Under the pieces are notes generated by a model. The model ran no database searches and was not told where the DNA came from. It was given only the letters and a program-made list of their open reading frames with translations. Shown here piece after piece: positions 1 through 1,376 of a stretch of 32,000 nt of DNA. The stretch is from contig CAZECW010000075.1 in the NCBI GenBank assembly GCA_964510585.1, positions 1 through 32,000 on the forward strand, in the 5' to 3' direction. The stretch is from an uncultured archaeon (lineage in GTDB: Archaea; Asgardarchaeota; Jordiarchaeia; Jordiarchaeales; Jordiarchaeaceae). Position numbers and translations under genes: made by a program. Numbering within the stretch: the first letter of the stretch is position 1; the number at the start of each line of letters is the position of its first letter.

Positions 1-100
1 ATGGGTGTGCCATCACCCAGTTAGCACGCCCTTCCCTCATGGGAACGGCGTCTATGTTGGCACCCTCATGGGGGCTGCGTCTTGTTTAGCCCCTTAAAGC
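1..100 (-). ncRNA. Putative omega-RNA-like structured RNA (partial)
   Basis: Three adjacent GC-rich hairpins (2-19, 26-51, 71-93) and a duplicated CCCTCATGGG (34-43, 63-72). The minus frame reads GANIDAVPMREGRANWVMAHP, resembling the tail after the last RuvC motif of archaeal TnpB. TATATAAATA lies upstream at 130-139 (minus). Confidence 0.45.
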
Positions 101-211
101 CCAAGCCAAACCCTTCAGCTACCAACAACTATTTATATACCCTACTTTCAAATAAGCTTTTTGGCGATTCATCCCCACGACTAAAGTCGGGGGCTTTCTC
201 GCCAAGGTTTT
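1..211 (-). mobile_element. Non-autonomous IS200/IS605-family element (IS608-like left end joined to probable tnpB 3' tail/omega-RNA); runs off the window
   Basis: Minus strand reads TTAC|AAAACCTTGGCGAG-AAAG-CCCCCGACT-TT-AGTCG-T-GGGG: TTAC target (212-215), AAAG guide (194-197) and a hairpin with bulged T (173-193), the IS608 left-end architecture. An outer stem TTGGCGA/TCGCCAA spans 161-167/199-205. No transposase ORF follows. Confidence 0.75.
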
Positions 212-263
212 GTAAAAAATGTGTGGGTGGTAACTGTTTTTATTGGCGAATTAGATTGCATGG

Positions 264-932
264 TTGTTTGAAATGTTGGGGAATGTTGTCCAGAAAATGG
301 TTGAGGGTCTCAGTGTAGAGGATTTCCAAGTTTATTGCAAAAAGGTTTCTAAAGGCAGGTTCAGGGAAGAAGAAAACTTGGAAATATATTTAAAGAGGAA
401 GGGATTGGAGAGTCGGCTCTTGGATGTCAAGGTATTTCATGGTAGGCCTCCTTACCACACTCCTTGGGTGGAATTCTTTGATATTAGAACACCCATCGTT
501 ATGGGCAGTGAAACATTGGAGTTTTTCGATTCGCCCGTTGAGGATGAGTTGTTGACGATTTTTTCCCAAGCCCTCAGTGGGGGAGAGAGTATTTTTGTAG
601 AGTACTATGAAGACGAAGAAACTCGGAGGCAGCTCGGGGCTGGGTTACCGCCACCAGTGAGTCGATTGGGCTACAAGTTATTTATGTTGGGTTTCACTTG
701 GTTTAAAGACTGGTATTTTGCTGAGGGTTTCTGGGAAGGGGGACAAAAGCTACAAGGAGAAAAACCCAGCAGGGAATCAAAAAGTCGGCAGTTAGCGTAC
801 ATCTATAGCGAAGCCAAGAACTTCCTCGAAAAGCAGCAGAGCATGGAGAAACATGAATGGTACCAGGTTAGAGCGGTTGTCAGAGCCAAAAACATAATCA
901 GCCTACTTAAGGGCTCTCTTGAACAGTTTTAA
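264..932 (+). CDS. DUF1122 family protein
   Basis: Motifs GRPPYHTPWVE, FVEYYEDEET and GFTWFKDWYFAEGFWEGGQKLQGEKP. Confidence 0.85.
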   Translation: MFEMLGNVVQKMVEGLSVEDFQVYCKKVSKGRFREEENLEIYLKRKGLESRLLDVKVFHGRPPYHTPWVEFFDIRTPIVMGSETLEFFDSPVEDELLTIFSQALSGGESIFVEYYEDEETRRQLGAGLPPPVSRLGYKLFMLGFTWFKDWYFAEGFWEGGQKLQGEKPSRESKSRQLAYIYSEAKNFLEKQQSMEKHEWYQVRAVVRAKNIISLLKGSLEQF

Positions 933-970: not shown

Positions 971-1091
971 AAATTAATAATGTAAAATTATAAAAAATCC
1001 ATCAAGATTGTAGGGAAATAAAAAATAAAACTTTCAAAGTCCTTAAGAAGCAATACGGGCAATAGGTTCTAAACATTTAAGGTTTTTAGTG

Positions 1092-1376
1092 TTATTTTGA
1101 TTCCCGTTTTTCAGTTACGGAAAAGGACACAATTGCACCAGAATCTGTTTCTTCCACCTCATCTATTCTGGTCTCAACTCCAAAATCTTTGAGCACGTAG
1201 ACCAGGTCTTCAAAGTAATCATAGAAACCACAAGTGCGACAGTAGGGCCCCGTGAATTCTATCTTAAATGAGCACTTGGCATTTGAAACAATCCTAGCAT
1301 TAGCCTCAGGCGAACGGTATTTATTGTACTCCCTAACCGCCTTGTACAAAACCTTCTCAAAAGACTCTTTACTCAT
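1092..1376 (-). CDS. Conserved archaeal hypothetical protein with CxxC (probable start ATG 1376)
   Basis: EYNKYRSPEA...FTGPYCRTCGFYDYFEDL; the extension to 1430 looks non-coding. Confidence 0.7.
   Translation of the reverse strand: MSKESFEKVLYKAVREYNKYRSPEANARIVSNAKCSFKIEFTGPYCRTCGFYDYFEDLVYVLKDFGVETRIDEVEETDSGAIVSFSVTEKRESK

Follow-up and report, generated by a model that had tools for sequence, protein, structure and literature searches.

In the available text of PMC3119063, which also gives the definition of PATEs followed here, members of the IS200/IS605 family are described as having a targeting oligonucleotide of 4-6 bases and causing no duplication. According to the accessible portions of bioRxiv 2023.03.14.532601, PATEs often encode omega-RNAs that need TnpB in trans, and guided TnpB cuts the empty site, with recombination restoring the copy. 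As far as the available parts of the respective sources go, PMC10691335 summarises standalone omega-RNAs that work in trans, PMC4615843 reports a PATE RNA that is expressed, TnpB is described as trimming its guide from its own message in PMC10278001, and L7Ae binding is shown for the tnpB-derived RNAs sRkB and sRkC in PMC3124441. Guide-only PATEs are known, and they raise the question of what lets an omega-RNA work when it is not cut from a tnpB message of its own.

The stretch of DNA analysed here (the window, 32,000 nt) is the start of contig C75 in an archaeal assembly, G000, of 3.78 Mb in 217 contigs, in which an archaeal Nre gene was found; the sequencing runs in which the element is best represented are hot-spring metagenomes. 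Read on the minus strand from 211 to 1, the start of the window is the left portion of an IS605-derived element of 276 nt without an ORF, which belongs to the PATEs and in its predicted working resembles a standalone omega-RNA. No ORF of 80 aa or more was found over window 1-215. The element is truncated by the contig start, and window 1-141 overlaps exactly with C37:1-141 and with nothing else, while the genes of C37 adjoin the window's DUF1122 gene in the orthologous loci of five of five congeners. This overlap and gene order place the right end of the window copy at C37:142-206, and the 211 nt in the window plus 65 nt on C37 give the copy its length of 276 nt. The initial annotation, which read the stretch as an IS605-type mini-element, had proposed looking leftwards for a right-end hairpin, and a hairpin followed by TCAA is indeed present there, within the 65 nt beyond the contig start. 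This remainder comprises a third stem, GAAT, the right-end hairpin, and the terminal TCAA, and the guide is predicted to run from C37:207 on.

The motifs on which that reading had been based all lie on the minus strand: TTAC at 215-212, AAAG at 197-194, a bulged hairpin at 193-173, and TATATAAATA at 139-130. TTAC belongs to the host DNA and is the target tetranucleotide and predicted TAM. TTAC/AAAG and TCAA/GAAT are IS608 motifs, and AAAG is the presumed left guide, the role that it has in IS608; it is also present in the tnpA-bearing IS605 left ends on C7, C169, and C162. The hairpin is a subterminal left-end structure and predicted TnpA site, indicated by DNA folding and common to tnpA-bearing left ends, and the folding of this region as DNA exceeds chance (z -3.86, 0/200 shuffles). 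The identification as an IS605-type mini-element with IS608-like ends thus held, its left end being common to tnpA-bearing IS605.

The element occupies the gap between the DUF1122 gene (264-932, plus strand) and a co-directional upstream gene on C37, in an orientation reversed relative to both. The corresponding site is empty in three related genomes (G001, G003, and G004). Once the element is taken out, its flanks can be aligned to the empty G001 site straight through the junction, with no gap, and the sites of G003 and G004 align too; by these alignments the insertion is directly 3′ of TTAC, without target duplication. Elsewhere in this neighborhood, an AT-rich repeat of ~100 nt, found in ~30 places in the assembly, matches the congener intergenic stretch that follows DUF1122 (the region of window 981-1100).

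Sibling copies, which the initial annotation had expected BLAST to reveal, are abundant. A search with a whole copy returned 149 hits, among them 29 whole copies, 51 left parts, and 39 right parts, where the parts end at contig ends. The 29 whole copies are 275-284 nt long, none are identical, and their identity is 84-98% with a median of 94.7%. There are 94 related left ends, 84 of this PATE family, eight of IS605, and two others, and TTAC, likewise anticipated at every left junction, precedes 93 of the 94. The right ends number 78, 70 of them from this PATE family; their flanks are all different (78/78), and TCAA is followed by G in a single one of the 78. The first ~60 nt of the element are common to tnpA-bearing left ends and the last ~37 nt to tnpB-bearing right ends. 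Copies of the element are severed at 90 of the 434 contig ends, i.e., the assembly is fragmented by them. In three DNA runs the contig depth over the element is tens of times that of its flanks, a depth which does not equal copy number.

One site is known in both allelic states. A TTAC-adjacent match of at least 12 nt was found for only one of the 78 flanks, and it lies at C154:2123, an empty site inside an open frame. The assembly has the empty form of this site and run X1 the filled one; in run X2 a contig reads it as empty and extends 30 letters beyond, one letter under the bridging rule. Shorter flank matches of 8 and 10 nt occurred 58 and 2 times against random expectations of 60.5 and 4.65, i.e., with no depletion, and the 78 flanks gave no regulatory target in host genes and no aiming at other host sites. 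The copy at G000:C12:8676-8955 has as its right flank the sequence that follows the empty C154:2123 site together with a different left flank, a pattern that reflects either recombination between copies or a mis-join.

The assembly also harbors other small elements of this kind. Single-hairpin elements of ~50 nt, which lack the scaffold, are found here and, several per genome, in congeners. In one of these, G000:C3:22074-22031 (L046), a single hairpin makes up both ends between TTAC and TCAA-like motifs, and further examples are L019, L028, L031, L034, L015, and L025. Since such scaffold-free elements spread, the RNA is not needed for spread, and TnpA seems to need far less sequence than the 276-nt element retains. 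A second ORF-less family of ~335 nt (G000:C58:28224-28557, C107:6905-7233, and copies on C32 and C21; L041-L043 and L080) has hairpin 2 and the right end as in the 276-nt element together with a different structured 5′ module, and a 5′ module similar to the latter precedes other scaffolds in G304 and G456 (L240 and L257).

The initial annotation had suggested that the element could be moved by TnpA in trans and serve a TnpB encoded elsewhere, and genes for both proteins are present, with the C169 TnpA and the C81 TnpB scoring above their cut-offs. Three tnpA genes (on C7, C169, and C162) start with the same first 60 nt as the element and are followed by a tnpB on the same strand; the C169 product scores 129 bits against the NCBIfam cut-off of 55, and the C162 tnpA and the C7 tnpB are frameshifted. 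From these shared ends, mobilisation of the mini-element by TnpA in trans is likely. The tnpB 3′ end is present at four right ends, while the middle of that gene is unassembled: residues 159-241 of the G004 homologue of this commonest co-resident IS605 TnpB match only the distant C81 protein. The latter is an open TnpB of 424 aa that scores 136 bits against a cut-off of 100, with D, E, and D at what we take to be the places of the rearranged RuvC site. Because the third-stem base and right end of the C81 tnpB resemble those of the mini-element, its product is the best candidate partner, as judged from sequence. The C81 locus itself (G000:C81:5075-6790) has a degenerate tnpA running in frame into tnpB, forming a 571-codon open stretch, and the tnpB frame reaches the element's last base. 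Three more TnpB-like genes of other families were seen, one open on C204 (381 codons) and two broken on C13 and C124 (L001, L003, and L005). A full-length tnpB parent with the mini-element's exact tail, which had been proposed as its source, was not found among the loci searched in genomes and metagenomes. Among the matches listed in the metagenome scan (at least 111 loci, at least seven of them true hits), none had a tnpB in the listed part, and viral contigs gave no matches to the hairpin-2 pattern.

The claim that an omega-RNA scaffold is retained is borne out by covariation in 24 sequences. The last 120 nt of the element match the 3′ ends of the clade's tnpB genes, with a scaffold length of 120 nt here and 111 nt in parent L056. 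Scaffold hairpin 1 (window 26-51, minus strand) is where the tnpB 3′-end similarity starts, and hairpin 2 (2-19, minus strand) includes the NWVMAHP codons and has a loop predicted to form a pseudoknot with the element's last bases. In alignment A2, whose 24 rows of parents and minis are what is left of 55 loci once 13 without a pseudoknot call, about five mis-picked loci, and the long-stem rows are taken out, 89.7% of cells are paired, and the covariation score is 0.224 against 0.112±0.011 in shuffles (0/500). The pseudoknot helix is 96.7% paired in the 24 sequences, with changes that are only one-sided in the counted alignment; a two-sided variant was seen by eye in the G047 family. The RNA read from 140 to 1 folds with a z of -3.16 (1/200 shuffles). 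In 14 of 15 minis the match to tnpB parents begins within 3 nt of hairpin 1; these rows are not independent, as G004 contributes 12 of the 15, which are probably related by descent. On this comparative evidence, what the last 120 nt retain is the scaffold of a TnpB omega-RNA, in which stems covary and a pseudoknot is predicted.

The omega-RNA covariance-model check suggested at the outset was negative with Rfam: the omega, sot, and HgcC models gave no match in the window at gathering score. Searches with whole copies at E up to 5-10 returned nothing over the element except one chance-level match of 22 nt. The sister mini-family represented by L042 reached 23 bits against Rfam sot0042 (cut-off 88, E 0.002).

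The initial annotation had explained the entire element as what remains after nearly all of tnpB was deleted, pointing to a minus frame that begins with GAN and ends with NWVMAHP. That frame, GANIDAVPMREGRANWVMAHP, is there and reaches the contig edge. The deletion account fits the last 120 nt and fails for the first hairpin at 130-54, which is a separate domain; GAN straddles this domain, and the window copy starts to resemble a tnpB tail only from about window 58 on. The domain is a structured 5′ leader, H0 (window 54-130, minus strand), detected by covariation and by covariance-model hits, and consists of an outer stem, a kink-turn signature, and inner stems with a 3-nt A-rich bulge.

A kink-turn is composed of a C-stem, a 3-nt bulge, tandem G·A/A·G pairs, and an NC stem, and this arrangement was found across 21 leader sequences. 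In the window copy the bulged strand (C-stem, CAU bulge, GA, and GGG) lies at 63-74 and the non-bulged strand (CUGA) at 115-118, both on the minus strand. The leader core in alignment A3 (21 sequences from 10 genomes, with related rows and with alignment and structure set by hand) has 17 pairs, a count that leaves out the outer stem because its register differs between families, and is 90.4% paired; two-sided changes occur in 10 of the 17 pairs against 5.5±1.4 in shuffles (0/500). The unpaired kink-turn bases are nearly invariant, with L3 U and 2b A in 21/21 and 1n A and 1b G in 20/21, and position 2n is G in 12, A in eight, and U in one of the 21. The first C-stem pair is G-C in 19/21 and A·C in both G000 rows; the window copy is one of these two and thus has a mismatch in place of a Watson-Crick first C-stem pair, possibly with an extra bulged A. 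RNAalifold keeps the outer and apical stems and, where the kink-turn would lie, folds another small hairpin. L7Ae-family genes are present, and the predicted leader kink-turn is likely a docking site for host L7Ae.

The leader is not confined to this assembly. It was found in 15 different genomes from two archaeal phyla, the match in G004 being weak. A 19-base leader pattern matched a record titled Ca. Bathyarchaeota, genome G301, which carries 20 diverse ORF-less elements with the leader module, and a record titled Ca. Jordarchaeia has part of the leader along with an almost identical left end. Covariance-model matches were obtained in 4/150 genomes of G301's class, 5/150 of its phylum, and 8/150 of the window's phylum, counts in which the best 32-150 candidates per genome were scored and a miss does not equal absence. 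In G047, G038, G062, and G028 the scaffold joined to the leader is of another kind, as is the end family (right end GTTCAC), and in three G320 elements the leader sits on a short tail without recognisable hairpins 1 and 2. One element each in G028 and G062 has the leader followed by a tnpA 3′ remnant and then a tnpB gene; in G062 this gene is whole and has its right end, and in G028 a contig end severs it. A model search of 61 loci found the leader absent from the co-resident tnpB parents. Compared in this way, the leader is a separate conserved domain and not a tnpB relic.

Neither the window nor whole copies gave an Rfam family match for the leader, and no description of it turned up among the openly readable papers and preprint texts searched; the available parts of PMC11043419 and PMC12558985 contain nothing on such a leader. 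Reading the leader as a peptide or as a tnpA relic was tried and is unsupported, there being no shared frame and no significant similarity to tnpA or tnpB. At L299/L341 (G047:C5), what looks to us like an IscB-type (HEARO) RNA, probably a nested insertion, comes after the leader and a broken hairpin 1. On a metagenome contig, L096 has the promoter, the leader, and two scaffold hairpins without the ends, just upstream of an unrelated ORF, and is possibly an immobilised relic.

The promoter had initially been placed at TATATAAATA (130-139, minus strand), a variable AT-rich stretch by the predicted start site. Since this stretch lies directly against the first RNA helix and only 53 of 78 copies have it intact, its role as promoter is unsupported, and it is probably not a TATA box. 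A conserved TATA-like box, CTTATTTG, lies instead at window 156-149, after AAAAAG; together they form a likely BRE/TATA (149-162, minus strand) that precedes the leader by ~25 nt and occupies the position of the tnpA promoter in the parents. The matched copies, 75 in number, keep YTTATTTG, and a box of the TTAAA/TTAT type occurs ~25 nt upstream of the leader's first helix in the 19 loci listed, the window's included. The whole transcript predicted from window 130 onto C37, containing the leader and four hairpins, folds with a z of -4.56 (0/200 shuffles). RNA run X8 (share 0.17) has two contigs at depth 3-4 on related elements, which, as they are without a silent-region control, we do not count as evidence.

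Taking these results together, we favor, with somewhat better than even confidence, a working in which a protein-free, IS605-derived element of 276 nt, present in ~80 copies after TTAC, is moved by TnpA in trans, makes a leader and omega-RNA scaffold from its own promoter, and is aided in its retention by a TnpB that would act in trans on the empty site. TnpA made elsewhere would excise and insert the element, and transcription from the element's own promoter would start near window 130. Since an orphan guide has no tnpB message of its own, the leader and L7Ae are proposed as its 5′ protection: L7Ae on the leader would shield the 5′ end of the orphan RNA until it is bound by scarce TnpB, which would then trim it at hairpin 1. 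TnpB guided by the flank would cut the copy's empty site, and recombination would restore the copy.

The same element could be an ordinary PATE that carries its RNA parts as passengers, its spread accounted for by TnpA acting in trans, with leader and scaffold inherited from a tnpB-only parent in which they were functional and no present guide function. The leader does stand ahead of tnpB in G028 and G062, from which a mini could arise by one deletion, the scaffold-free elements spread as well, and for the common IS605 a whole cognate TnpB is missing from the assembly. Counting against passengers are compensatory changes among the ORF-less copies themselves, such as the diverged C49 copy and the G301 minis, and the presence of the leader on different scaffolds and end families in ORF-less elements, and we judge this account rather unlikely. 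We think it quite improbable that the RNA is instead a decoy or regulator, with ~80 loci titrating TnpB, TnpA, or L7Ae and thereby damping autonomous IS605. A decoy role of PATE-derived RNA is speculated upon in the available text of PMC4615843, minis outnumber IS605 left ends by 84 to 8, and the leader persists in the G320 elements although the scaffold there is not full; nevertheless, the 3′ end, the pseudoknot partners, and the guide junction are intact, as a working guide needs, and a decoy would bring no obvious benefit to the element itself.

The leader in particular could be a remodelled scrap of coding sequence, the start of tnpA or tnpB, in which the pairing is incidental and there is no kink-turn. 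Its location where tnpA starts in IS605, the tnpA 3′ remnant that follows it in G028 and G062 (Y1_Tnp positions 96-121, E 0.0038, below cut-off), and the alternative RNAalifold hairpin can be cited for this origin. The covariation is strong, however, and the unpaired kink-turn bases are invariant; the families have no reading frame in common, and nine parent loci gave no significant DNA similarity to tnpA or tnpB except for the leader itself in L201 (next E 0.46). We therefore give a coding origin very little credence.

Returning to the orphan guide with a protected 5′ end, we offer a broader proposal only tentatively, as a possibility we doubt more than we believe: the 75-nt leader would be an undescribed portable RNA domain, swapped between archaeal IS200/IS605 end families, that acts as an L7Ae-capped 5′ module and lets orphan guides persist and contend for TnpB belonging to autonomous elements, such that one nuclease gene would support homing at ~80 sites. 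The occurrence of the kink-turn leader before different scaffolds and before tnpB makes the question of what lets an orphan guide work testable with a 75-nt RNA, L7Ae, and one TnpB. If the proposal is true, archaea offer a case of a host RNP protein drawn into the RNA-guided nuclease pathway of a transposon, and the leader is a possible natural 5′ stabiliser for thermophilic TnpB guides.

Among known systems, the nearest kink-turn precedent is the pair of Pyrococcus abyssi RNAs sRkB and sRkC, which belong to a different sequence family. As described in the accessible part of PMC3124441, they are, like the element here, intergenic RNAs that occur repeatedly and are related to the 3′ end of a tnpB; their own BRE/TATA 24 nt upstream and their L7Ae-bound kink-turns have predicted counterparts here, and they are processed from a primary transcript of ~215 nt. 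They differ in that the supplement sequences are unlike ours by eye and that their first stem aligns with tnpB coding sequence, whereas the leader here is a separate module found across end families. The omega-RNA of ISDra2 (PMC10097598, available text) has a scaffold of ~116 nt with four stems and a last-base pseudoknot, and the 120 nt here follow the same predicted logic. Unlike Rfam sot0042 members, the element has no gathering-score match, with only the sister family L042 matching weakly. The standalone omega-RNAs of OMEGA systems (PMC10691335, in the portions available) are likewise mobilised RNA-only loci with an effector elsewhere; their function in trans has been demonstrated, and here it is predicted. 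The PATEs of Haloquadratum (PMC3119063) and the omega-RNA-bearing PATEs of Geobacillus (bioRxiv 2023.03.14.532601), as their accessible text presents them, share with this element the lack of an ORF, near-terminal hairpins in common with IS605, a fixed target oligonucleotide without duplication, homogeneous copies, and an omega-RNA requiring TnpB in trans, as the one here is predicted to. Here, correspondingly, there is no transposase ORF, the near-terminal palindromes are related to IS605, the target oligonucleotide lies outside the element and is not duplicated, copies are more than 90% identical at the median of 94.7%, and insertions are strain-specific, as the C154:2123 alleles illustrate. 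In contrast to those PATEs, ~80 copies of one family are present in a 3.8-Mb assembly, and there is an extra structured 5′ leader that the co-resident parents lack; with guide-only PATEs already described, this portable kink-turn leader is what is new.
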